This document shows, one piece after another, positions 42,428 to 52,168 of a DNA stretch of 64,000 nt. Numbering within the stretch: position 1 is the first letter of the stretch; every line of letters begins with the position of its first letter. The notes beneath the pieces are model-generated. The model was not told the DNA's origin and did not search any database. It saw nothing but the letters and a program-made list of their open reading frames with translations. Source of the stretch: a virus; the IMG/VR virus record IMGVR_UViG_3300032224_000970, positions 95,684-159,683 of that record; one strand, 5' to 3'. Position numbers and translations under genes: made by a program.

Positions 42428-42642
42428 GCATGACAGACAAAGAACTAGAACGATTCTCTTATGAGGTCGATGATGTTCTGATTGATATGGCGAATAAGTA
42501 TGACACTAATGCATTGACGCTGTCAGCTGTCATTCTTGCAAGACTGGCTCTTTTGAATCATCAGGCTGGAACGACACCAGATTTTGTTGCACTGATGACT
42601 GACATCGTTGCGCCAAAGTTGGATAAAGAACAGGTACACTGA
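42424..42642 (+). CDS. hypothetical protein
   Basis: GGAG SD. Confidence 0.5.
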   Translation: MSMTDKELERFSYEVDDVLIDMANKYDTNALTLSAVILARLALLNHQAGTTPDFVALMTDIVAPKLDKEQVH

Positions 42643-42754
42643 TGCAGTTGCAAACTAAACTCAAGATAGAGAATTTCTTGAATCGCATTCAACGCAATTT
42701 TACATTGATGGAGTGGGCAGTGATGATTATGGTTGTAACATGGTTGATATTTCT

Positions 42755-43267
42755 ATGAAGCAGAAGTGGATTGATGCATTTATGGATACAGCTGAGAGGT
42801 TTGCTCAGCTGTCCTCAGCAAGACGATTGCATGTTGGTGCAATCGTTGTAAAGGATGATCGTATCATCTCGATTGGTTACAATGGTATGCCATCGGGTTG
42901 GGACAACAACTGTGAAGATAAGATTTATGTTGATTCATCGCTAGAAGAATCAATGTTATATCAAAGCAAGGTAGATGTTTATCTTGATGTGAATAAAAAA
43001 TTATATGAATTAAAATCTAAACCAGAGGTGCTTCATGCTGAAACAAATGCGATTGCGAAACTTGCTAAGTCTAACGAATCTGGTATGGGTGCTACTATGT
43101 TTATTACCCATGCTCCATGTCTGGACTGTGCCAAACTTATCTACCAAAGTGGTATTAGCAGTGTTCTATATCGGAACTCTTATCGCAATACTGATGGTAT
43201 CGACTTTTTGCAAAAATGTAACATCGAAGTAAAAAATACTTTACTAAAATCAAAAACTGAGGTATAA
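42755..43267 (+). CDS. cd: dCMP deaminase
   Basis: GYNG, HAETNAI, PCLDC zinc motifs. Confidence 0.93.
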   Translation: MKQKWIDAFMDTAERFAQLSSARRLHVGAIVVKDDRIISIGYNGMPSGWDNNCEDKIYVDSSLEESMLYQSKVDVYLDVNKKLYELKSKPEVLHAETNAIAKLAKSNESGMGATMFITHAPCLDCAKLIYQSGISSVLYRNSYRNTDGIDFLQKCNIEVKNTLLKSKTEV

Positions 43268-43279
43268 TTTACCTAAATA
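43240..43279 (+). promoter_or_regulatory. upstream sigma70 promoter plus late-promoter-like CTAAATA
   Basis: TTTACT-17-TATAAT (43240-43268); CTAAATA 43273-43279. Confidence 0.65.
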
Positions 43280-43299
43280 AATAACTGGTCTGAAAAGAC

Positions 43300-43328
43300 T
43301 TTACTTTAATTCAAAGGTGTAGTAAAAT
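43300..43328 (+). promoter_or_regulatory. promoter of tRNA-array leader
   Basis: TTTACT-17-TAAAAT; predicted +1 falls at leader ATG 43335. Confidence 0.8.
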
Positions 43329-43334
43329 TCTACT

Positions 43335-43451
43335 ATGAAAACAAACTGTATATCCGTGTTAAGAAAGCATCTCCCACTTAATAGTGGCTGGTCAGTAACA
43401 CGCCCACAGTTTGCAGCCATTGAGTATGATAGTGAGGGTTTTGGCAAGTGA
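43335..43451 (+). CDS. attenuator leader peptide, 38 aa, containing all 20 amino acids (not in ORF track)
   Basis: MKTNCISVLRKHLPLNSGWSVTRPQFAAIEYDSEGFGK*; 3' end forms the antiterminator arm. Confidence 0.75.
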   Translation: MKTNCISVLRKHLPLNSGWSVTRPQFAAIEYDSEGFGK

Positions 43452-43482
43452 AGTAAATTCAAGTTTACTTACCAAAACCCTC
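43434..43482 (+). promoter_or_regulatory. antiterminator hairpin
   Basis: 43434-43452 pairs with 43464-43482 (19 positions, 1 mismatch, 1 G-U), sequestering the terminator 5' arm. Confidence 0.8.
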
Positions 43483-43512
43483 TGAGATGAAAGTCCAGAG
43501 GGTTTTTGTTTT
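43474..43512 (+). terminator. attenuator intrinsic terminator
   Basis: AAAACCCTCTG / CAGAGGGTTTT stem followed by TGTTTT. Confidence 0.85.
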
Positions 43513-43534
43513 ATGGCCATCGTGCCAGAAATAT

Positions 43535-43550
43535 TGTTCTTTTACAATTT
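43535..43550 (+). promoter_or_regulatory. rrn-type boxA antitermination element
   Basis: TGTTCTTTTACAATTT vs E. coli rrn TGCTCTTTAACAATTT; small hairpin TGGC/GCCA just upstream. Confidence 0.65.
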
Positions 43551-43560
43551 GGGATTCTGT

Positions 43561-43634
43561 TGGGGATTTGTGTAGTGGTAGCACAGCAGACTTTGACTCT
43601 GTTAGTACAAGTTCGATTCTTGTATCCCCTGCCA
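43561..43634 (+). tRNA. tRNA-Gln(TTG)
   Basis: cloverleaf, loop CTTTGAC, encoded CCA. Confidence 0.9.
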
Positions 43635-43679
43635 AACAAATGCGCATTTGCGTAGAGGTAGTGCTCATCTGTTTGGTAT

Positions 43680-43755
43680 GGTGTCTATAGTGTAGTGGTC
43701 TGCACTCCATGCTGTGAACGTGGAAGTATGAGTTCGATCCTCATTAGACACCCCA
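43680..43755 (+). tRNA. tRNA-His(GTG)
   Basis: G-1:C73, loop CTGTGAA, CCA. Confidence 0.9.
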
Positions 43756-43757
43756 AT

Positions 43758-43833
43758 GCTGCTTTAGCTGATGTGGTCATAGCACTGGTCTGAAGAACCA
43801 AGGAACGTGGTTCGATCCCACGAGGCAGCACCA
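43758..43833 (+). tRNA. tRNA-Phe(GAA)
   Basis: loop CTGAAGA, CCA. Confidence 0.9.
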
Positions 43834-43840
43834 AGAATTT

Positions 43841-43914
43841 CCTTTCGTAGCTCAAAGGTAGAGCACTCGGCTGATAACCGAGAGACATAGGATCGTTACC
43901 TGTCGAAAGGACCA
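43841..43914 (+). tRNA. tRNA-Ile(GAT)
   Basis: loop CTGATAA; atypical T-loop ATCGTTA; CCA. Confidence 0.88.
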
Positions 43915-43919
43915 AGTTT

Positions 43920-43994
43920 ACCCGATTGGTGAAATGAATATCACACAGTGCTACGAACGCTGGGTTGGGAGTTTGATTCTCTCATTGGGTGCCA
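43920..43994 (+). tRNA. tRNA-Arg(ACG)
   Basis: loop CTACGAA, CCA. Confidence 0.85.
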
Positions 43995-44000
43995 AGTTAA

Positions 44001-44090
44001 GGAAGTGTGGCAGAGTCTGGTTTATTGCACCTGTCTTGAAAACAGACGATCCGAAAGGATCCGTGAGTTCGAATCTCACCGCTTCCGCCA
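44001..44090 (+). tRNA. tRNA-Ser(TGA)
   Basis: long variable arm, loop CTTGAAA, CCA. Confidence 0.92.
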
Positions 44091-44113
44091 ATTTTTTATG
44101 AAAGGAGTTGTAT

Positions 44114-44695
44114 ATGCCAAGTGTATTCTTAGTAAGCGATACGCACTTCGGGCACGCTGGTGTATGCAGATTCACTCGTGACGATGGTGAGAAGTTAAGA
44201 CCATGGACTGATCCAGATGAAATGGATGAGGAAATGGTAAAGCGATGGAACGAAACTGTGAAGCCAACTGATAAAGTTTATCATCTTGGTGACGTAGTGA
44301 TCAATCGTAAAGCATTGAAGATTATGCATCGTTTGAATGGTGACAAAGTTTTGATTCGTGGTAACCATGATATCTTTAAGGATGATGACTACCGTGAACA
44401 CTTTCGTGAGTTACGTGCATATCATGTGATGAATGGAATGATCTTAAGCCACATACCGATTCATACAGAATCGTTAGGTAGGTTCGGTGTGAACATTCAT
44501 GGTCACTTACACAGTAATCGTGTAATGTTACCTGGATTTGGTGGCAAGATTACTGACATTGTTGATGCACGATACCACTGTGTCTGTGTCGAACAAACAG
44601 ACTTTCGTCCTATCTTATTTGAAGATGTGATCAAACGCATCAAAGAAGAAGGTGGTGAGGTAGGTTTTAAGAATGGTAATGGACCAACGATGTAA
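44114..44695 (+). CDS. calcineurin-like metallophosphoesterase
   Basis: SDTHFGH, HLGD, GNHD, HGHLH; AAGGAG SD. Confidence 0.88.
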   Translation: MPSVFLVSDTHFGHAGVCRFTRDDGEKLRPWTDPDEMDEEMVKRWNETVKPTDKVYHLGDVVINRKALKIMHRLNGDKVLIRGNHDIFKDDDYREHFRELRAYHVMNGMILSHIPIHTESLGRFGVNIHGHLHSNRVMLPGFGGKITDIVDARYHCVCVEQTDFRPILFEDVIKRIKEEGGEVGFKNGNGPTM

Positions 44696-44700
44696 GGATT

Positions 44701-44792
44701 GGAAGGTTGGATGAGTGGCTGAAATCAGCAGTTTGCTAAACTGTCGTTCATAGAAATATGAACCATGGGTTCGAATCCCATACCTTCCTCCA
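44701..44792 (+). tRNA. tRNA-Ser(GCT)
   Basis: long variable arm, loop TTGCTAA, CCA. Confidence 0.88.
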
Positions 44793-44796
44793 AGAT

Positions 44797-44874
44797 GCCC
44801 TTGTACGCAAATTGGAAAAGTGGCTCTCCTCAAAAGGGAGTATTCTGTCGGTTCGAGTCCGACCAAGGGTACCA
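44797..44874 (+). tRNA. tRNA-Leu(CAA), short variable region
   Basis: loop CTCAAAA, ACCA. Confidence 0.85.
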
Positions 44875-44882
44875 AAGAATTT

Positions 44883-44959
44883 GCGGATGTGATGGAATTG
44901 GTATACATATCGGACTTAAAATCCGAGTTCTGTGGGTTCGAGTCCCACCTTCCGCACCA
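44883..44959 (+). tRNA. tRNA-Leu(TAA), short variable region
   Basis: loop CTTAAAA, ACCA. Confidence 0.88.
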
Positions 44960-44966
44960 AGTTTAT

Positions 44967-45041
44967 ACGGCTATCGTTCAATGGATAGGACAGCATTCTT
45001 CTAAAGTGCGAATGAGGGTTCGATTCCTTCTAGCCGTGCCA
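44967..45041 (+). tRNA. tRNA-Arg(TCT)
   Basis: loop CTTCTAA, CCA. Confidence 0.88.
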
Positions 45042-45047
45042 ATGTTA

Positions 45048-45122
45048 GGGCTGGTAGCTTAATGGTAAAGCAGTCGACTCATAATCGATTGAGTGGGAGT
45101 TCAATTCTCTCTCAGCCCACCA
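45048..45122 (+). tRNA. tRNA(CAT), probably Ile2
   Basis: GGGCT acceptor, GACTCATAATC anticodon arm typical of Ile2. Confidence 0.8.
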
Positions 45123-45151
45123 TTGACTTGTAAGATTGTTTGAGGTATAAT
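45123..45151 (+). promoter_or_regulatory. internal sigma70 promoter
   Basis: TTGACT-17-TATAAT. Confidence 0.75.
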
Positions 45152-45160
45152 AGAGTAAAT

Positions 45161-45222
45161 GCGAGTGTGGTGGAATGGTATACACATCAGACTTAAAATC
45201 TGACGCTTAATTGATTGAGGGT
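45161..45222 (+). pseudogene. 3'-truncated tRNA-Leu(TAA)
   Basis: 5' acceptor strand, D arm, TCAGA-CTTAAAA-TCTGA arm and 5' T-stem present; T-loop, 3' acceptor strand and CCA missing. Confidence 0.8.
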
Positions 45223-45229
45223 GGATGAT

Positions 45230-45790
45230 ATGAAAGAGTTAAAAGATTTTATATTGATTTATGATAAAGTTTTGCCAGAAGATGTTTGTAAAGCATCGGT
45301 GGAAGATCTAGAAAATAGAAGTTGGGAGCAGCATTTGTTTTATGAAAGTAAGACAAATACGTATGCAGAAACTATTGATGACTGCGATATCTATTCAGAA
45401 CAAATTGTTACTGGACAGATTATTGCTCAAGCAACAGGTGCTGTGCTACATGATTATGTTAAGAAATTAAATTCTAATTACTTTAACGAGTTGCAGAAAT
45501 TTAGTAACATTACATATCATAGGTACAGAGATGGAAAGCAGATGGTTGAACACTGCGACCATATCCATGCCTTATTCAAAGGTAGTGCAGATAAAGGCAT
45601 ACCAATACTATCTGTTGTTGGTGTGTTGAATGATGGGTATGTTGGTGGAGAATTTGTAATGTTCGATGACTATGAGATTAAACTCGGTGCTGGAGACATT
45701 ATAGTATTTCCTTCTGTGTTCTTGTTTCCACATCGAATTAATAGAGTTACTGAAGGGACAAGATATTCTTTTGTTTCTTGGGCATGGTAA
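45230..45790 (+). CDS. prolyl-4-hydroxylase-like 2OG-Fe(II) oxygenase
   Basis: HCD, YVGGEF, FPSVFLFPH, GTRYSFVSW. Confidence 0.85.
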   Translation: MKELKDFILIYDKVLPEDVCKASVEDLENRSWEQHLFYESKTNTYAETIDDCDIYSEQIVTGQIIAQATGAVLHDYVKKLNSNYFNELQKFSNITYHRYRDGKQMVEHCDHIHALFKGSADKGIPILSVVGVLNDGYVGGEFVMFDDYEIKLGAGDIIVFPSVFLFPHRINRVTEGTRYSFVSWAW

Positions 45791-45791
45791 T

Positions 45792-45865
45792 GTGAGTGGA
45801 GCCAGTTGGACGGGCACTGGATTGCAAACCCATGGAAGTAGGTTCGATTCCTATCACTCACTCCA
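45792..45865 (+). tRNA. tRNA-Cys(GCA), imperfect anticodon stem
   Basis: GTGAGTG/CACTCAC acceptor, U73, loop TTGCAAA. Confidence 0.75.
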
Positions 45866-45891
45866 GAAAACGAAAGGTTTACATTATGAAT

Positions 45892-45955
45892 AACCCTACA
45901 GAGCGTAGGGGATTGAAAGAAAGTGCTTTACTTTAATTCAGCCTTCAGGCATAAT
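45892..45955 (+). promoter_or_regulatory. hairpin + early promoter cassette
   Basis: CCCTAC/GTAGGG then TTTACT-17-CATAAT. Confidence 0.75.
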
Positions 45956-45985
45956 TATACTATGTTGATTATGAAAGGAACTGAA

Positions 45986-46228
45986 ATGACTGAATTTGAA
46001 AAGAACTGCTACGGTATGAGCCAAGACGACATTCGTGAAGAATATATGAATTCTCTGACTGCTCGCCTGAGTGGTTTGGAAATGGTTGCGATGGGTGTGT
46101 TGTCTGATGCGCAAGAGTTGATGTCTTTTGGCAATGCTCAAGCGATGGATCAGTCCCGTAAAAACATCAACATCGCTAAGTTCATTCTTAGCGAAATGAT
46201 GGAAGCAAGAATGAAAGAAGTAGCGTAA
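45986..46228 (+). CDS. hypothetical protein
   Basis: AAGGA SD; CYGMS...LSDAQE...INIAKF. Confidence 0.65.
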   Translation: MTEFEKNCYGMSQDDIREEYMNSLTARLSGLEMVAMGVLSDAQELMSFGNAQAMDQSRKNINIAKFILSEMMEARMKEVA

Positions 46229-46236
46229 TAAATTAC

Positions 46237-46265
46237 TTTACTTTTATCAAGTGATGCGGTATAAT
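46237..46265 (+). promoter_or_regulatory. internal promoter of second tRNA block
   Basis: TTTACT-17-TATAAT. Confidence 0.8.
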
Positions 46266-46281
46266 AGCTGTATTGCTTGAT

Positions 46282-46297
46282 CGCTCTTTAAAAATTT
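46282..46297 (+). promoter_or_regulatory. rrn-type boxA element
   Basis: CGCTCTTTAAAAATTT between promoter and tRNA-Glu. Confidence 0.7.
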
Positions 46298-46312
46298 GTT
46301 GGTATTAAATTT

Positions 46313-46388
46313 GCTCGGTTCGTCTATCGGCTAGGACACTGCCCTTTCACGGCAGGAAGGAGGGGTTCGATTCCCCCACCGAGTACCA
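46313..46388 (+). tRNA. tRNA-Glu(TTC)
   Basis: loop CTTTCAC, CCA. Confidence 0.92.
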
Positions 46389-46389
46389 G

Positions 46390-46604
46390 ATTTAATTGTA
46401 TTGGGTTACCAAGCCAGTAGGTAACTTAGGAGAGAATAATCAGTAGCCGTACTGACTCTCGCTAAGTTACAAGAAACCTTGAGATAGTATCAGGAGGACG
46501 CTGGAACAACTTGGCACGTAATGTGATTGATGACCAGTCGTAGGACGACTACGTGGTTAACCATCGGATGGTGGTTGTCAGCAATCATCCCAGTATAATT
46601 AAAT
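46390..46604 (+). ncRNA. putative structured RNA (~215 nt)
   Basis: closing stem TTTAATTGTATTGGG/CCCAGTATAATTAAA with nested internal helices. Confidence 0.65.
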
Positions 46605-46608
46605 GTGG

Positions 46609-46757
46609 TATTAGTTTAGTGTTATCAAGGTATCGTTATAGGACGCTATGACTACTCGACAGTTAGGGTGCGACTGAAACTGTCTGATATAACTGCCACT
46701 CGCTTGTCAGTGCTAGCTACATTGTTGACAAATAGGCACGATAACACTAAACTAATA
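46609..46757 (+). ncRNA. putative structured RNA (~150 nt)
   Basis: perfect 18-bp closing stem TATTAGTTTAGTGTTATC/GATAACACTAAACTAATA. Confidence 0.65.
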
Positions 46758-46761
46758 TTAT

Positions 46762-46854
46762 GGAGGTATTGTAGATATGGCGTGTTCTGCAGCGGACTGT
46801 AAATCCGTTCCCTCGTGGTAAACATTGTTGGTTCGACTCCAACTACCTCCACCA
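46762..46854 (+). tRNA. tRNA-Tyr(GTA)
   Basis: loop CTGTAAA, long variable arm, atypical D arm, ACCA. Confidence 0.85.
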
Positions 46855-46980
46855 TATTCGGCAACTTCGGTTGCTGCCGATCCAGCTAAAGGTGCTGGCG
46901 TGTCATTCGGTGTATCACCTAGATATACTTTCGGTATCCACGAAGAGATACGGCTAAAGTTCGTAATGCCAACGATTTTT

Positions 46981-47055
46981 GGTTTGTAAGTGTTCATGGA
47001 CGCACGTATGCCTGTCACGCATAAAGAAGGGGATCGTTACCCCTACAGACCGCCA
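46981..47055 (+). tRNA. tRNA-Asp(GTC)
   Basis: loop CTGTCAC, G73, atypical T-loop ATCGTTA. Confidence 0.85.
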
Positions 47056-47080
47056 AGTTATTGTTGTGAAGGAAAAGAAA

Positions 47081-47434
47081 ATGAATATAAATGATATGGT
47101 TGGTAAAGTGTTCACTTCGGTGACACAAGATGGTTATGAGATGGTGTTTAAGAATGAAACTGAAACATTCAAATTCTATCACTATCAAGATTGTTGTGAG
47201 TCTGTTACTATCGATGACATCGTTGGTGACTTGTCTGACTTAGAAGATGCACCACTGTTGATTGCTGAAGAAGTTTCTGGTGAAGCACCTGTGTTGGATG
47301 ATGAATATCATGAGTGCGTTGAGTGGACATTCTACAAATTCGCAACTCGTAAAGGTTATGTTGATGTGCGTTGGTTTGGTGAGTCTAATGGCTACTACTC
47401 AACTAGCGTTGATTTGGAATATGAATTAGTATAG
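47081..47434 (+). CDS. conserved phage protein
   Basis: YHYQDCCESV...WTFY...GESNGYYS. Confidence 0.75.
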   Translation: MNINDMVGKVFTSVTQDGYEMVFKNETETFKFYHYQDCCESVTIDDIVGDLSDLEDAPLLIAEEVSGEAPVLDDEYHECVEWTFYKFATRKGYVDVRWFGESNGYYSTSVDLEYELV

Positions 47435-47439
47435 TATAT

Positions 47440-47514
47440 TGCGGGAAGGTCAAGTTGACCCGAATGGTCTCATAAGCCATATCGAGGGTGGAGCGTTACC
47501 ACCTCCCGCTACCA
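47440..47514 (+). tRNA. tRNA-Met(CAT), initiator-like, atypical
   Basis: unpaired 1:72, (T)GCGGG acceptor, loop CTCATAA, T-loop AGCGTTA. Confidence 0.75.
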
Positions 47515-47516
47515 AA

Positions 47517-47755
47517 CCTGCAGCTAATCACTGCTAGTGTGATCCGCACGAGAGAAACTGATTGACGATCAGTAGGATGGTTCTCCCTTTGAATAGGGCA
47601 TGAGTAAAATCATGGGTCTACCTAACCAGCGTTGGCAACACGAGAGTTCTGTCTGTGGCGAGTGGGTGGAGGGAGTGCGTGATGAAAGATTAATTGGAGT
47701 AAAACCTGACCAAATTTCTGATGCTCTATAATTACCACGACAGACAGGAAGCATT
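47517..47755 (+). ncRNA. putative multi-hairpin structured RNA (~240 nt)
   Basis: no + strand ORF; hairpins ACTGAT/ATCAGT, CCCT/AGGG, CATGA/TCATG, CTGTCTGT/ACAGACAG. Confidence 0.55.
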
Positions 47756-47757
47756 TA

Positions 47758-47834
47758 GCCCAGATGACGGAATTGGTATACGTGTTGGTCTTAGAAGCCA
47801 AATTTTGAGAGTTCGAGTCTCTCTCTGGGCACCA
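47758..47834 (+). tRNA. tRNA-Leu(TAG), short variable region
   Basis: loop CTTAGAA, ACCA. Confidence 0.88.
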
Positions 47835-47839
47835 ATTAT

Positions 47840-47914
47840 GGATCGTTAACTCAGTGGTAGAGTGTCTCTTTTACACGGAGAAGGTCGGGAGTTCGAATCT
47901 CTCACGATCCACCA
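47840..47914 (+). tRNA. tRNA-Val(TAC)
   Basis: loop TTTACAC, ACCA. Confidence 0.9.
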
Positions 47915-47965
47915 TTTTTATTAGGAGATAGTTATGAAGCGAAAATCTAAAACCCGAAAGAGTAT

Positions 47966-48041
47966 GGGGGTATGGTGAAATGGTTATCACAGCAGACTTT
48001 TAATCTGCCAGTTTAGGGTTCGAGTCCCTGTGCCCCTACCA
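47966..48041 (+). tRNA. tRNA-Lys(TTT)
   Basis: GCAGA-CTTTTAA-TCTGC, ACCA. Confidence 0.9.
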
Positions 48042-48119
48042 TATAAAAACACATTTCAGCAGGATAGCCTGTGGTGGATAGTTTCTGTTTAGTACAGTAT
48101 TCGAAGTGTGTTTCTATAT

Positions 48120-48194
48120 GGTAACATAGCACAATGGCAGTGCACATCCTTCATACGGATAAGGTTATTGGTTCAAGTCCAATTGTTACCACCA
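48120..48194 (+). tRNA. tRNA-Met(CAT), elongator-like
   Basis: loop TTCATAC, ACCA. Confidence 0.85.
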
Positions 48195-48204
48195 AAGGAA
48201 TTTT

Positions 48205-48440
48205 ATGTTAGAATATGTAGTTACATTTATTGCCATATTCATGCTTGATGTTGTTTATACATATTATCTAAGATGTGTGGCTAACAATCATGTTCTCGGT
48301 GCCAGTTGCTGGTCGATTGCATGTTACCTTCTTGGAAGTGTTGCTGTAATCAATTATACAAGTAATCACTGGTTGTTACTACCTGCAGTTGCTGGTGCAT
48401 TTTGTGGCACCTATGTAGGTATGATATTGAAAAGAAATAA

Positions 48441-48450
<10 letters not shown>
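48205..48450 (+). CDS. small membrane protein
   Basis: three TMs, AAGGA SD; last 10 nt overlap tRNA-Pro. Confidence 0.65.
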
Positions 48451-48517
<67 letters not shown>

Positions 48518-48524
48518 AGTTTTT

Positions 48525-48598
48525 GCCCTATTAGTTAAATGGTAGAACATCGGTTTTGTAATCCGAGGAAGGCAGTTCGATTCTGTCATGGGGCACCA
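48525..48598 (+). tRNA. tRNA-Thr(TGT)
   Basis: loop TTTGTAA, ACCA. Confidence 0.85.
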
Positions 48599-48606
48599 AG
48601 TTTTAT

Positions 48607-48681
48607 TCCACAGTAGCACAGCGGTAGTGCAGTTGACTGTTAATCAATTGGTCGGAGGTTCGATCCCTTCCTGTGGAGCCA
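48607..48681 (+). tRNA. tRNA-Asn(GTT)
   Basis: loop CTGTTAA, GCCA. Confidence 0.92.
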
Positions 48682-48767
48682 GTTTTGTGGTAAGGAAAGT
48701 AAAAGGAGAATGGGCAAGTCGTTGGCTAGACAATGACTAGATACCTCACCTGCCACAAATTTTATTT

Positions 48768-48841
48768 GGGGGATTAGTTAAATGGGATAACCATGGCTTT
48801 GCAAGCCATTATTGAGAGTTCGATTCTCTCATCCTCCACCA
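48768..48841 (+). tRNA. tRNA-Ala(TGC)
   Basis: G3:U70, loop TTTGCAA, ACCA. Confidence 0.9.
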
Positions 48842-48857
48842 ATTATGAAAGATAGCA

Positions 48858-49307
48858 ATGATACACGTAATCAAAGAACTGACTGAAGCGATATACAGCA
48901 TACTAACTGAAGATCCAGTTAGACCACATATCCCACAGCTGGATCGTGTTGGTGAACACAAAGATGTTTTCGTATATCGTAATCAAGATCAATCAGTTGC
49001 AGCAATCACATGTGTCAGCTATCAGAATTTTGTTCCAGTAAGCGAACGTGAGTTGTTTCAAGATTGCGAGAAACCAACCATCGCAGTGTTCTATACAATA
49101 TGGAGTTATGCTCCAGGAGCAGGTCGTTCACTGATATTTGATGCGGTTAAATATATCAAGGAAACGAATCCGAACATTGAACGATTCGTTACTCTATCTC
49201 CAAAGACAGAGACAGCGAAAAGGTTTCACATACGTAATGGTGCTATCATCTTTAGAGAGAATGAAGAAACAACTAACTATGAATATGTTAATGCAGTATT
49301 GCTCTAG
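48858..49307 (+). CDS. hypothetical protein, possible GNAT-like fold
   Basis: FYTIWSYAPGAGRSLI and AKRFHIRNGA resemble acetyl-CoA-binding motifs. Confidence 0.5.
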   Translation: MIHVIKELTEAIYSILTEDPVRPHIPQLDRVGEHKDVFVYRNQDQSVAAITCVSYQNFVPVSERELFQDCEKPTIAVFYTIWSYAPGAGRSLIFDAVKYIKETNPNIERFVTLSPKTETAKRFHIRNGAIIFRENEETTNYEYVNAVLL

Positions 49308-49376
49308 TAGCTCAGTTGGTAGAGCAACTGATTAGTAATCAGTAGGTCTGCGGTTCGAATCCGTACTAGAGCACCA
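49301..49376 (+). tRNA. tRNA-Thr(AGT)
   Basis: ACTGA-TTAGTAA-TCAGT, canonical D and T arms, ACCA. Confidence 0.9.
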
Positions 49377-49405
49377 TTTTAAAAATAAAATTGGGGAGAT
49401 GAAAG

Positions 49406-49684
49406 ATGAGTGATGGTGGAAAAGGTAGTGCGCCAAGACCATTAGCAGTTTCTTATGATGAGTATACAGCTAAATGGAATGCAATATTCAGGAACGAGGG
49501 TGTTAGTAAGTCACAGGCAAAACGATTAGCAGTGCAACGTGAAGATAACACTGGCACTGATAAGAATGAATACTACGATGTTCTTTCTACAGAAGACTGT
49601 ATAGATCCTGTTACACGTGATGATTCAGCTGCTGAAGATGAAGCATTCAAGTATGTGGAGGAACATCAGAAATATAAAGTATAA
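49406..49684 (+). CDS. hypothetical protein
   Basis: MSDGGKGSAPRP...WNAIF motif, GGAG SD. Confidence 0.65.
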   Translation: MSDGGKGSAPRPLAVSYDEYTAKWNAIFRNEGVSKSQAKRLAVQREDNTGTDKNEYYDVLSTEDCIDPVTRDDSAAEDEAFKYVEEHQKYKV

Positions 49685-49685
49685 T

Positions 49686-49759
49686 ATCTCGATAGTGTAA
49701 TGGCAGCATACCAGTCTCCAAAACTGTTGGTCGGGGTTCGAGTCCCTGTCGGGATGCCA
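49686..49759 (+). tRNA. tRNA-Trp(CCA)
   Basis: loop CTCCAAA, GCCA. Confidence 0.88.
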
Positions 49760-49761
49760 GA

Positions 49762-49847
49762 AAAAGTCCTTGAGGATAGATCAAGGCAGATTAATCACCT
49801 CCGAGTTCGGAGTAGTTTGATTAGCAGCAGGTGGAAGCCCTGCACCA
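49762..49847 (+). ncRNA. putative 3-hairpin RNA ending in ACCA
   Basis: CCTTGA/TCAAGG, CTCCGA/TCGGAG within TAATCA/TGATTA, GCAGG/CCTGC then ACCA. Confidence 0.5.
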
Positions 49848-49849
49848 TT

Positions 49850-49923
49850 GCGGGTAAGCACAAGGTGTGTCGCCAGCCTTCCAAGCTGTGCAGAGTGGAG
49901 TTCGACTCTCCCTATCCGCTCCA
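49850..49923 (+). tRNA. tRNA-Gly(TCC), reduced D arm
   Basis: GCGGG acceptor, loop CTTCCAA, U73-CCA. Confidence 0.8.
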
Positions 49924-49944
49924 TAAAATATAAGAGGTGTAGTC

Positions 49945-50427
49945 ATGAAAAAAATTAATATTGATGAAGTGAAAACTTACATTGAAGTACAGAGTCCCGA
50001 AACAAAAATCTACATTGGTGGTGACTCCGAACGATTTAATATTGGTAATGACTGGTATGCGGACTACACACTTGCGATTGTTGTTCATATCAATGGTAAC
50101 AATGGATGTAAAATTTTTGGTGAAACCATTCGTGAACGTGACTGGGATCAGAAGAAAGACAAGCCACGTATGCGTCTGATGAACGAAGTATACAAGATCG
50201 CAGAGTTATACCTAAAGTTGCAAGACGTATTGGAAGATAGAGAGGTAGAAGTTCACCTAGATATCAATCCAAACGAAATGCATGGTTCAAGTTGCGTTAT
50301 CAATGAAGCAGTCGGTTACATTCGTGGTATGTGTAATGTTATCCCACTGGTTAAACCAAATGCATTTGCAGCAAGTTATGCAGCAGATAGATTGAAGTGG
50401 GTTATGCAAGAAAGAAAAGTTGCTTGA
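49945..50427 (+). CDS. RNase H-like YkuK/DUF458 family protein
   Basis: IYIGGDS, RLMNEV, EVHLDIN, KPNAFAASYAAD. Confidence 0.8.
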   Translation: MKKINIDEVKTYIEVQSPETKIYIGGDSERFNIGNDWYADYTLAIVVHINGNNGCKIFGETIRERDWDQKKDKPRMRLMNEVYKIAELYLKLQDVLEDREVEVHLDINPNEMHGSSCVINEAVGYIRGMCNVIPLVKPNAFAASYAADRLKWVMQERKVA

Positions 50428-50452
50428 CATGCAATAATGTTTAGCGTATAAT
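50424..50452 (+). promoter_or_regulatory. consensus sigma70 promoter
   Basis: TTGACA-17-TATAAT. Confidence 0.8.
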
Positions 50453-50473
50453 TATGTTTATTGAAATGAAGGA

Positions 50474-51067
50474 ATGACTATGGAAACTATTAATTTGAGA
50501 AAAGCAAATGCAATCCAAAGCGAGATCCGTAAAGCGATCTCTAGTTCTGATGTTAGCGATACTGCTACCATCACTGAGTACAGCAAAGACATTGCTGGTA
50601 GTCTTGAGAAAGCAATGGCAGATTATGCCACTGATGTTACTCGCAAGGTAGCATTAAACACTGCGTTGTTTAACATTCGTAAGAGTGTTGCTCAAGCAAA
50701 CGCCACTAATGGTATTAGCGATATCCTTGCTGATGTTGAATTGGTCGATGCCAAGATCACAGTTTACAGCAATGTTGCCACTAAGCAAGTTGCTAAGACT
50801 CTGACTGAAATCTCTAATCGTATCGAGAAGATTAAAGCTGTGCCACCTGATGCTTCTCGTGCTGCAGCAATCTATGGTGATCGTTACAACACAGTGGAAA
50901 CATCTGTTGTTGAACAAGGTACTATCGATGGTGCCAAACAAATTGTCAAGCAATTGAAGCGTGAGAAGCAAGCACTTCAAGACAAACTGTTGACACTGAA
51001 TGTTAACACTACAATCAACATTGATAGTGTTGATGAGATGGTTTTGAAGATCGAAGGTATTTTGTAA
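50474..51067 (+). CDS. long coiled-coil hairpin protein, possibly DIP1984/DUF6847-like
   Basis: INLRKANAIQ...LQDKLLTLNVNTTI end motifs, all-helical. Confidence 0.55.
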   Translation: MTMETINLRKANAIQSEIRKAISSSDVSDTATITEYSKDIAGSLEKAMADYATDVTRKVALNTALFNIRKSVAQANATNGISDILADVELVDAKITVYSNVATKQVAKTLTEISNRIEKIKAVPPDASRAAAIYGDRYNTVETSVVEQGTIDGAKQIVKQLKREKQALQDKLLTLNVNTTINIDSVDEMVLKIEGIL

Positions 51068-51071
51068 GTTT

Positions 51072-51320
51072 TGAGGAACAGTGCGATAAGAGAGCAGAAT
51101 GGGTAGTTGCAAAAATCTAATACTTCTAAAGTATTGGCTTGGTCTTGAAAACCAAATCCGAACAATTGTCCGACTCTGTTGTTGCTCCACGATATATACT
51201 AGACTGTTATAGTCGTTGCTTGTTGCTTCGTGGTTTATAACTTTTGTGGACTGTCCATTGCATATTGCTAATTGCATATTGCTATGCGACTATTCGCTTG
51301 AATTGAAACACTGTTCCTCA
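51072..51320 (+). ncRNA. putative ~250-nt structured RNA with heptamer-repeat loop
   Basis: 12-bp closing stem TGAGGAACAGTG/CACTGTTCCTCA; ten 7-nt units at 51216-51285. Confidence 0.7.
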
Positions 51321-51323
51321 TCT

Positions 51324-51399
51324 GCGGGAGTAATTCAGTTGGTAGAATGCCTGCTTGCCAAGCAGAATGTCGTCGGTTCGAGTCCGATCTCCCGCTCCA
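51324..51399 (+). tRNA. tRNA-Gly(GCC)
   Basis: loop TTGCCAA, U73-CCA. Confidence 0.92.
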
Positions 51400-51417
51400 A
51401 TTTTATAGGATGATTTT

Positions 51418-51786
51418 ATGTTTACTCTGTTGGTTCTACTGCAAGTGAAACACTGGTATGTTGACTTCGTTATGCAAACTCCAGAAATGGTTGCAGGTAA
51501 AGGTATCTACGGAAATCCACATGGCATCGTTCACTCTCTCCAGCATGCAGCTGCAACACTTGCACTGCTGCTTCTCGCTATCAATCCCACGATAGCAATC
51601 TCACTCGCAGCACTCGACTTCGTCACTCACTATCATATAGACTGGGTGAAGATTCGTTTCGGTTGCCGAGACATACAGAATCCCAAATTTTGGAATCATC
51701 TTGGTCTTGACCAGATGGCGCATCAGATCGTTTACATAACAATTGCAATCTTTGCTGCAAGTGCAATGGGTGCAGTTATAATCTAG
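51418..51786 (+). CDS. DUF3307-like membrane protein
   Basis: KHWYVDF..Q, HSLQH, HYHID, GLDQMAH. Confidence 0.8.
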   Translation: MFTLLVLLQVKHWYVDFVMQTPEMVAGKGIYGNPHGIVHSLQHAAATLALLLLAINPTIAISLAALDFVTHYHIDWVKIRFGCRDIQNPKFWNHLGLDQMAHQIVYITIAIFAASAMGAVII

Positions 51787-51794
51787 GAGATAGT

Positions 51795-51992
51795 ATGGAA
51801 GAACAGCCAGTCAAACTTACATTCAAAGAACAGTGGGAACAACGCAAGTTGCTCAAACGATCCAAGAAGAAAGCCAAGAAAGAATTAGTGAAGAAGGGTT
51901 ACGATCCTTCGTCAGCATCATCGATGGTCAAGAAAGCATTAAAGAACATATCAAATAAACCAGAACGCAAAGCAGCGAATAGAGGTGGGTAA
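51795..51992 (+). CDS. basic hypothetical protein
   Basis: AGGAG SD. Confidence 0.55.
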   Translation: MEEQPVKLTFKEQWEQRKLLKRSKKKAKKELVKKGYDPSSASSMVKKALKNISNKPERKAANRGG

Positions 51993-52168
51993 TGATATAC
52001 TTACAAAAACCAAATGGGCAAACAGTTGCAATTAATCCGCTACAGGTATTGATGATAACCGAAGGTACAGCTGGTTGCACGATACACTTTGTTGGTGGTG
52101 TAAATACGATGACCAATGAAAGTTATCTCGATGTTGTTGCCAAGATCAAAGTAGCATTGGAGAAATAA
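51992..52168 (+). CDS. small FlbD-like protein (not in ORF track)
   Basis: MIYLQKPNGQTVAINPLQVLMITE... Confidence 0.5.
   Translation: MIYLQKPNGQTVAINPLQVLMITEGTAGCTIHFVGGVNTMTNESYLDVVAKIKVALEK

Follow-up and report, generated by a model that had tools for sequence, protein, structure and literature searches.

A candidate leader-peptide attenuator with near-complete amino-acid content at the head of a phage tRNA array

The last 64,000 nucleotides of IMG/VR virus record IMGVR_UViG_3300032224_000970 (159,683 bp, with direct terminal repeats; this 64-kb stretch is called the window, and coordinates are counted from its first nucleotide) contain a short open reading frame (ORF) and two alternative RNA hairpins between a dCMP deaminase gene (42713-43267) and the first gene of a tRNA array (43561). 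The best reading of this element, which we favour with moderate confidence on comparative sequence evidence, is attenuation of transcription by a translating ribosome, which would control whether RNA polymerase proceeds into the phage tRNA array. Leader and switch are present in at least 130 related viral sequences (63 and 74 distinct sequences from two overlapping sets). An earlier, sequence-only reading of this DNA had proposed attenuation of this type; its comparative predictions for the ORF, for codon diversity and for covariation held in the relatives, whereas the leader codons turned out to be no better matched to the phage tRNAs than bulk codons are. The parts of the element are as follows.

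43300-43328, + strand: promoter P2, TTTACT-17-TAAAAT, with its predicted +1 at the A of the ATG (from sequence)
43335-43451, + strand: leader ORF, 38 codons plus TGA, intact in all 63 and 74 distinct related sequences
43374-43387, + strand: 5-bp hairpin inside the ORF, CCACT-N4-AGTGG, codons 14-18 (RNAalifold)
43434-43482, + strand: antiterminator hairpin, 5' arm (arm 1) 43434-43452, comprising the last five codons and the stop, 3' arm (arm 2) 43464-43482
43474-43512, + strand: intrinsic terminator, stem of 43474-43484 with 43496-43506, followed by TTTTTGTTTT

The element recurs in related viruses with an open reading frame

Homologous leaders were first found by a search of deaminase neighbourhoods, from which a six-peptide alignment (A1) was built. 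A search with the motif [HQ]LPL.SGW returned 80 viral loci; adding the window and the six loci of the deaminase search, and dropping two loci truncated by a contig end, gives a first set of 85 loci, which represent 64 distinct DNA sequences and 49 different peptides (33-45 residues). One decayed copy was set aside, so that 63 of the 64 distinct DNA sequences were analysed. Because a motif search can find intact ORFs only, a second search used the terminator sequence alone. It yielded 93 distinct contexts, 74 of which belong to the family by their DNA sequence, and 45 new peptides.

An ORF running from ATG to stop is present in 137 of 137 sequences. For 136 of these the length is 32-45 codons, and the remaining ORF has 66 codons (41 when counted from the family's start), in line with the conserved length expected by the sequence-only reading. 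The ORFs found through the terminator end at arm 1 or its loop in 74 of 74 cases. Relatives that keep the hairpins but lack an open, codon-diverse ORF had been named as evidence that would count against attenuation; among the 63 and 74 distinct sequences we found no member with hairpins whose ORF was lost.

Two mutually exclusive hairpins share one strand

Folding of the leader in the window supports the arrangement put forward earlier, in which 43434-43452 pairs with 43464-43482 and thereby excludes the terminator at 43474-43512. The antiterminator reaches -25.0 kcal/mol (z = -5.9) and the terminator, with its T-run extending to 43512, -19.8 kcal/mol (z = -4.1); nucleotides 43474-43482 are common to both. 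For the full leader the fold has z = -5.0, with the antiterminator retained in the minimum-energy state.

The same geometry was observed across the family. The stop codon lies within the 5' arm of the antiterminator (~20 bp, -20 to -32 kcal/mol) in 63/63 relatives, and a terminator with an 11-14 bp G+C-rich stem and T-run (~-18 kcal/mol) is found in 62/63, the T-run being broken in locus L100, where the script consequently misplaced the terminator. Antiterminator and terminator overlap by 8-13 nt in 61/63 and by 5 and 3 nt in the remaining two (5 nt in L117), and the antiterminator is the more stable of the two (median -24 vs -18 kcal/mol). Arm 2 starts 3-15 nt past the stop codon in 59/63; for L093, L099, L100 and L113 this distance is unusable because the fold added a small upstream hairpin. 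Given the established footprint size of the ribosome, arm 2 begins at or just past the reach of a terminating ribosome.

In alignment A2, the antiterminator and the hairpin inside the ORF are paired in 95.6% of cells, with double changes at 7 pairs, compared with 38-57% in slid controls, and none of 500 shuffles reached their covariation score. The terminator is paired in 95.9% of cells, with double changes at 4 pairs and slid controls at 23-71%. Covariation, which the sequence-only reading had predicted, is therefore seen for both alternative structures, and on this comparative evidence both hairpins are real and mutually exclusive.

The hairpin inside the ORF is paired in 100% of the sequences, which include 17 G-U pairs and one compensatory G-C pair. 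Since G-U pairs are tolerated, the constraint is likely to act on RNA rather than on DNA. A palindromic DNA operator was considered for CCACT-N4-AGTGG and is disfavoured by the presence of G-U pairs, sensible only in RNA, in 17 distinct sequences. By analogy to the hairpin of the trp leader, it is possible that this structure acts as a pause hairpin for RNA polymerase. A protector (1:2) hairpin, or any partner of arm 1 inside the ORF, is absent from the minimum-energy and consensus folds. A scan of 42500-52000 against Rfam with E values up to 1 returned only tRNAs and chance matches, and nothing in 43300-43560.

Promoter geometry points to a leaderless mRNA

The -10 box of P2, a sigma-70-type promoter, ends 6 nt ahead of the ATG at 43335, and there is no Shine-Dalgarno sequence at a usable distance upstream of this ATG. 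The promoter and the lack of a Shine-Dalgarno sequence had been recognized in the sequence-only reading, and the geometry is kept in 56 of the 63 distinct relatives, where a -10 hexamer lies 6 nt (41 sequences) or 7 nt (15 sequences) before the ATG. With the transcription start placed by this promoter geometry, the P2 mRNA is probably leaderless. In L003, L107 and L108 the ATG is preceded not by a -10 box but by an AAGGA ~10 nt upstream, with a promoter farther away; the ORF is kept in all three loci. A second promoter precedes P2 in the window.

43240-43268, + strand: upstream promoter P1, TTTACT-17-TATAAT (from sequence)

The -10 box of P1 and the dCMP deaminase stop codon overlap, and a P1 transcript would have a leader of ~60 nt. 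Upstream promoters are common among the loci: 33/63, including the window, have an extra strong promoter at a distance of 55-110 nt ahead of the ATG. Contigs from RNA libraries cross the ATG. Directly 5' of the P2 -35 box lies a small hairpin with a GAAA loop (43287-43300); L003 has one at the corresponding position.

The leader ORF is under selection, and its core is conserved as a peptide

The ORF of the window contains all 20 amino acids and 30 distinct codons within its first 32 codons, as the sequence-only reading had stated, and uses Leu, Ser, Arg and Ile codons of both classes. Of 35,588 stop-free 32-codon windows in the six frames of the window, only 4 contain all 20 amino acids, and the real genes of this phage yield 20 kinds in 0.28% and 19 or more in 3.6% of their 40-residue windows. 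A chance ORF is excluded because the feature is conserved in the relatives.

A peptide core, HLPL.SGW..[STA]R, is kept at the amino-acid level. Its invariant Leu, Pro, Leu and Gly residues each use 2-5 synonymous codons, and the ratio of nonsynonymous to synonymous polymorphism (pN/pS) is 0.38 in the core and 0.81 and 1.01 in the two flanks. The codon preceding the invariant Arg of the core always ends in CA and varies in its first base, so that it encodes Ser, Thr or Ala (43374-43400 of the window, codons 12-23). Length differences among the ORFs are whole codons. Comparison of the sequences thus indicates that selection keeps the ORF open and acts on its core at the peptide level, and from this evolutionary evidence we infer that the ORF is translated. 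At its 3' end the RNA seems to take precedence: in L111 arm 1 is read in another frame with the stop still inside the arm, and in L102 the stop comes two codons later. Since the peptide ends of these two leaders differ and the RNA arms are unchanged, the C-terminal residues appear to be dictated by the RNA.

The peptide-level conservation of the core would also suit an ORF that encodes a small functional protein, with the hairpins acting as a terminator plus stabilising stem, or as a factor-set switch, and with read-through independent of translation. Tandem and internal promoters, which suggest that much tRNA expression bypasses the element, fit this view as well. Nevertheless, we consider it improbable, as a protein-coding role leaves unaccounted for the stop codon inside the antiterminator arm in 63/63 relatives, the start of arm 2 just past the reach of a terminating ribosome, and C-terminal residues that follow the RNA arm through the frame change of L111 and the later stop of L102. 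Moreover, two thirds of the peptide show a pN/pS of ~1, the element was seen only at the heads of tRNA arrays, and no Rfam family, T-box or riboswitch matches the locus.

About as little weight is given to a second alternative, in which HLPL.SGW..[STA]R is a regulated arrest or pause peptide of the exit tunnel, similar to TnaC or SecM and perhaps responsive to a ligand or factor, that sets the switch. The low pN/pS of the core with free synonymous change would be expected of such a peptide, and the core matches no known family: searches of the peptide against Pfam and PHROGs gave no match, and a large protein database contains only 5 called relatives. Known arrest peptides require fixed spacing, however, and here the distances from the core to the start and to the stop and hairpin vary by several codons (Trp to C-terminus 18-25 residues). 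The core itself is altered in more distant members, the RNA hairpin inside the ORF places a constraint of its own on part of it, and an arrest peptide would leave the amino-acid completeness unexplained.

Leader peptides are more complete in amino acids than expected

Among 93 distinct peptides, 65 contain 20 kinds of amino acids, 27 contain 19 and one contains 18, with a mean of 19.69. Shuffling residues within alignment columns gave 18.19 ± 0.08 kinds. In tree simulations each column was evolved independently on the DNA tree with its own residue frequencies and a fitted rate, which gave 18.18 ± 0.33 kinds with the root drawn from column frequencies and 18.29 ± 0.27 with a reconstructed root. 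The maximum over 1,500 runs was 19.03, below the observed mean, and a set of 48 peptides agrees. In these comparisons, amino-acid completeness exceeds the tree-aware nulls.

The excess can be ascribed to compensation between residue positions. Cys is found either near the N-terminus or two residues past the Trp, never at both places; Tyr occurs once, in at least five different contexts; and Cys, Tyr and His are placed differently between lineages. Where the His of the core is replaced by Gln, a new His appears two residues upstream. Outside the core, where pN/pS is ~1, residues change freely while the amino-acid set stays complete.

Codons follow a similar pattern. In 75 of the 93 leaders, Leu, Ser, Arg and Ile are each written with both of their codon classes, versus 5.5 leaders expected from bulk codon usage (shared ancestry uncorrected), and the classes kept include ATA, which accounts for 13% of Ile codons in bulk. 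Each leader contains 29-34 distinct codons compared with 25.0 ± 2.8 in 40-codon windows of real genes, in agreement with the codon diversity above controls that the sequence-only reading had anticipated. No cluster of codons for a single amino acid and no repeats were found in the leaders, and Cys occurs zero times or once per leader. We also found no relation between the amino acids of a leader and the tRNAs of its array, and of 6 informative arrays only 2 have Gly anticodons that match the Gly codons of the leader.

A model for attenuation by translation of the leader

In the proposed mechanism, transcription from P2 would begin at or beside the A of the AUG and yield a leaderless leader mRNA, whose 38-codon ORF would be translated by a ribosome following the polymerase. 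A timely ribosome would reach the stop codon in the 5' arm of the antiterminator and mask this arm, leaving the shared strand free, so that the terminator could form and transcription would end near 43512. A late ribosome, delayed by scarce charged tRNA or by slow initiation or elongation, would instead allow the stronger antiterminator to form first, and polymerase would pass a boxA-like element into the tRNA genes. Because the untranslated leader forms the antiterminator, the default state would be ON and efficient translation would turn the switch OFF, amounting to negative feedback on tRNA supply. As the ORF is kept near-complete in amino acids and retains both classes of the split codon families, a shortage of nearly any charged tRNA would be expected to delay the ribosome. 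We infer transcription-translation coupling, the direction of the switch and stalling as the sensed variable.

In a broader version, the element would be a phage homeostat: one leaderless ORF of ~40 codons would poll every amino acid, together with both tRNA classes for Leu, Ser, Arg and Ile, and set the transcription of the phage's own full tRNA array. It would then be the first "universal" attenuator, and would also answer a shut-off of tRNA charging by the host or the action of defence nucleases that cleave tRNAs. We advance this version tentatively, rating it slightly below an even chance. The mechanism is compatible with host anticodon nucleases such as PrrC, VapC and PARIS as its natural trigger, which is conjecture.

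Several points weigh against attenuation by codon polling. Conservation of the core at the amino-acid level is not required by a pure codon-polling model, and the tree nulls, computed from short alignments, treat sites as independent. Of the first 49 peptides, 17 lack Val. Several peptides, three database proteins among them, lack Cys, and Gln or Trp is missing now and then; arrays behind leaders without Val still carry tRNA-Val. Phage tRNAs read 84.5% of the leader codons vs 83.1% of bulk codons, which is no enrichment. Furthermore, a near-invariant Asp codon lies two codons ahead of arm 1, so that a ribosome stalling on it would already cover the first part of the arm. If the footprint is set conservatively at 12 nt, the sensing zone leaves out Asp in 44 of 47 peptides, Glu in 37, and Tyr in 22; under the shorter limit given by the ribosomal helicase, overlap with the arm is confined to Asp and amounts to 2-3 nt. 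The earlier caveat that stalls at E30, Y31 and D32 may be too close to the hairpin thus holds for Asp family-wide. Transcripts from upstream promoters would have an internal AUG without a Shine-Dalgarno sequence and might be read through constitutively, and leaderless initiation in the host has to be presumed. Finally, the leaders of five similarly built, more distant attenuators contain just 12-19 kinds of amino acids.

Some of these points would be expected if the switch gauged only whether a ribosome keeps pace, through ribosome availability, leaderless initiation or elongation rate, and the amino-acid make-up had no sensing role. The default-ON geometry with the stop codon inside arm 1 needs nothing more than pace; likewise, the leader codons are untuned to the phage tRNAs, the amino acids missing from leaders do not match the tRNAs missing from arrays, and the distant relatives of the same build manage with fewer kinds of amino acids. 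Still, this alternative appears unlikely to us, if less so than the small-protein and arrest-peptide alternatives, in view of a completeness more than 4 standard deviations over the tree-aware nulls, the retention of both classes of four split codon families far beyond expectation (75/93 leaders vs 5.5), and single-copy residues that relocate rather than vanish in spite of a pN/pS of ~1 outside the core.

Distant three-arm switches before tRNA arrays were observed in the viral contigs L247 and L350 (leader ~120 nt before the match), L301, L347, L289 and L306. Their leader peptides are unrelated and have 21-36 residues (the start in L347 is uncertain), some with a Shine-Dalgarno sequence. Since such distant switches carry unrelated leaders of 12-19 kinds, the switch seems to predate the all-amino-acid leader. 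Within the family, a decayed leader (L151/L231) has a GTG start, has lost the hairpins and the ATG, lacks Arg and stands ahead of a short array of 10 tRNAs, and L100/L181, with its broken terminator T-run, has only 6 tRNAs downstream.

The element is tied to tRNA arrays

A tRNA array on the same strand follows the leader in 78/78 loci with enough downstream sequence, usually 107-115 nt past the stop codon, and its first gene is tRNA-Gln in 73/78. Over the 1.5 kb preceding the leader, none of these 78 loci has a tRNA. Related arrays with 10-kb flanks have 24-29 tRNAs for 17-20 amino acids. As far as these loci show, the element is always ahead of a tRNA array. Among the loci of the deaminase search, no analogous leaders were found before tRNA arrays that are sited elsewhere in related phages. 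The stretch between terminator and array and the array itself are organized as follows.

43515-43549, + strand: small hairpin GGC-CATCGT-GCC (43515-43526), then a boxA-like motif (43534-43549)
43561-51399, + strand: tRNA array, 26 genes for all 20 amino acids, mixed with ORFs and internal promoters

The boxA-like word, GTTCTTT[AT]A[ACT]AA, is present in 49/63 relatives, and the remaining 14 have an extra promoter inserted there. By eye, the stem of the CATCGT-loop hairpin varies in a compensatory manner (GGC/GCC, GGG/CCC, AGC/GCT, GGAG/CTCC; L083-L162). We take the motif at 43534-43549 to resemble the boxA of E. coli rrn operons, and the conserved pair of hairpin and motif suggests Nus-type processive antitermination over the untranslated array.

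A recurring module, consisting of a hairpin of the CCCTAC-N-GTAGGG type, TTAT and a near-consensus promoter, lies past the terminator in L004 (5090-5170), L003 (4760-4830), L097, L099, L128 and L140, and upstream of the leader in L034, L041 and L051. In some loci it separates the attenuator from tRNA-Gln, a position that would allow it to bypass the switch.

Comparison to known leaders

The candidate attenuator shares with the enteric trp, his, leu, thr, ilvGMEDA and pheST attenuators a translated short leader ORF, a terminator and an antiterminator that shares a strand with it, and, as in these, a stall would lead to read-through and completed translation to termination. In contrast to the enteric leaders, it has no run of a single amino acid and contains nearly all 20 about once. 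It also lacks a protector hairpin, so that the untranslated state would be read-through rather than termination; its mRNA is probably leaderless; and it would control phage tRNAs instead of biosynthetic enzymes. The ilvGMEDA attenuator senses three amino acids, and we know of no leader-peptide attenuator with a wider range.

Sensing by leaderless ORFs has been described for the mycobacterial Cys "ribulon", in which leaderless polycysteine short ORFs sense Cys and pausing remodels the downstream RNA structure (bioRxiv 10.1101/834739). Like these ORFs, the phage leader would be a leaderless sensing ORF at the 5' end of its transcript; unlike the chromosomal mycobacterial ORFs, which act on a downstream ribosome-binding site, it has mixed codons, no Cys tract, a terminator and tRNA genes downstream.

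Further parallels lie in leaders that respond to the translation machinery itself. In the erm, cat, bmrCD and vmlR leaders, ribosome-bound antibiotics cause stalling in particular peptide contexts and thereby control resistance genes. The phage leader would likewise report ribosome slowing and switch on relief genes; to our knowledge, no translation-stress leader controls tRNA genes or is selected for full amino-acid content. In pyrBI and pyrE attenuation, a close ribosome on a leader of ~40 codons prevents the terminator, and the system senses UTP-dependent polymerase pausing. Here, too, the closeness of ribosome and polymerase would decide on read-through, with the opposite sign. With the rrn boxA leaders, as far as sequence resemblance goes, the phage element would share a hairpin and boxA-like word before untranslated genes, but its boxA-like word lies past the attenuator and would be an accessory rather than the switch.

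Within incomplete coverage of the literature, we found nothing relevant on leader peptides ahead of phage tRNA genes, and a 2024 opinion article on phage tRNAs does not mention attenuators, leaders, promoters or terminators. The element touches two open questions, the reason for large phage tRNA arrays and their control. Two recent reports describe phage tRNAs as countering host defences that target tRNAs (PMC11464382, PMC11555353). If the attenuator reading is true, a lineage of abundant freshwater T4-like phages feeds its translation state back on tRNA supply, and attenuation, known for one to three amino acids, would be generalisable to all. The leader would then be a compact natural sensor of charged-tRNA sufficiency and a potential reporter of translation stress, and a small ORF could be selected for its composition rather than its sequence.

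Genomic setting

T4-like genes for replication and nucleotide metabolism in the window include a DnaB-like helicase and ribonucleotide reductase. The nearest cultured phages by the helicase are Methylophilales phage Melnitz and T4-like cyanophages, with 61-64% amino-acid identity. Searches with the leader DNA and by tblastn gave no match in 50,697 phage records, hence no cultured carrier among those records. The DNA runs containing the stretch are mostly labelled as freshwater or aquatic metagenomes, with a marine label on one study.

Parts of the stretch are present in six metatranscriptome runs as assembled contigs, from which starts, ends and expression levels are not readable. Two RNA-library contigs match the window exactly, over 43208-43358 and 43270-43412, and 43444-43517 is covered by no RNA-library contig of four assembled metatranscriptome runs; both observations are neutral with regard to termination.

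The array itself agrees with its earlier description, as its 26 tRNA genes start at 43561 and serve all 20 amino acids, and all four internal promoters listed then (45123, 45927, 46237 and 50424) are present inside it. Between blocks of tRNA genes lie a phosphoesterase (phrog_547) and a 2OG-Fe(II) oxygenase gene (44108-44695 and 45215-45790).

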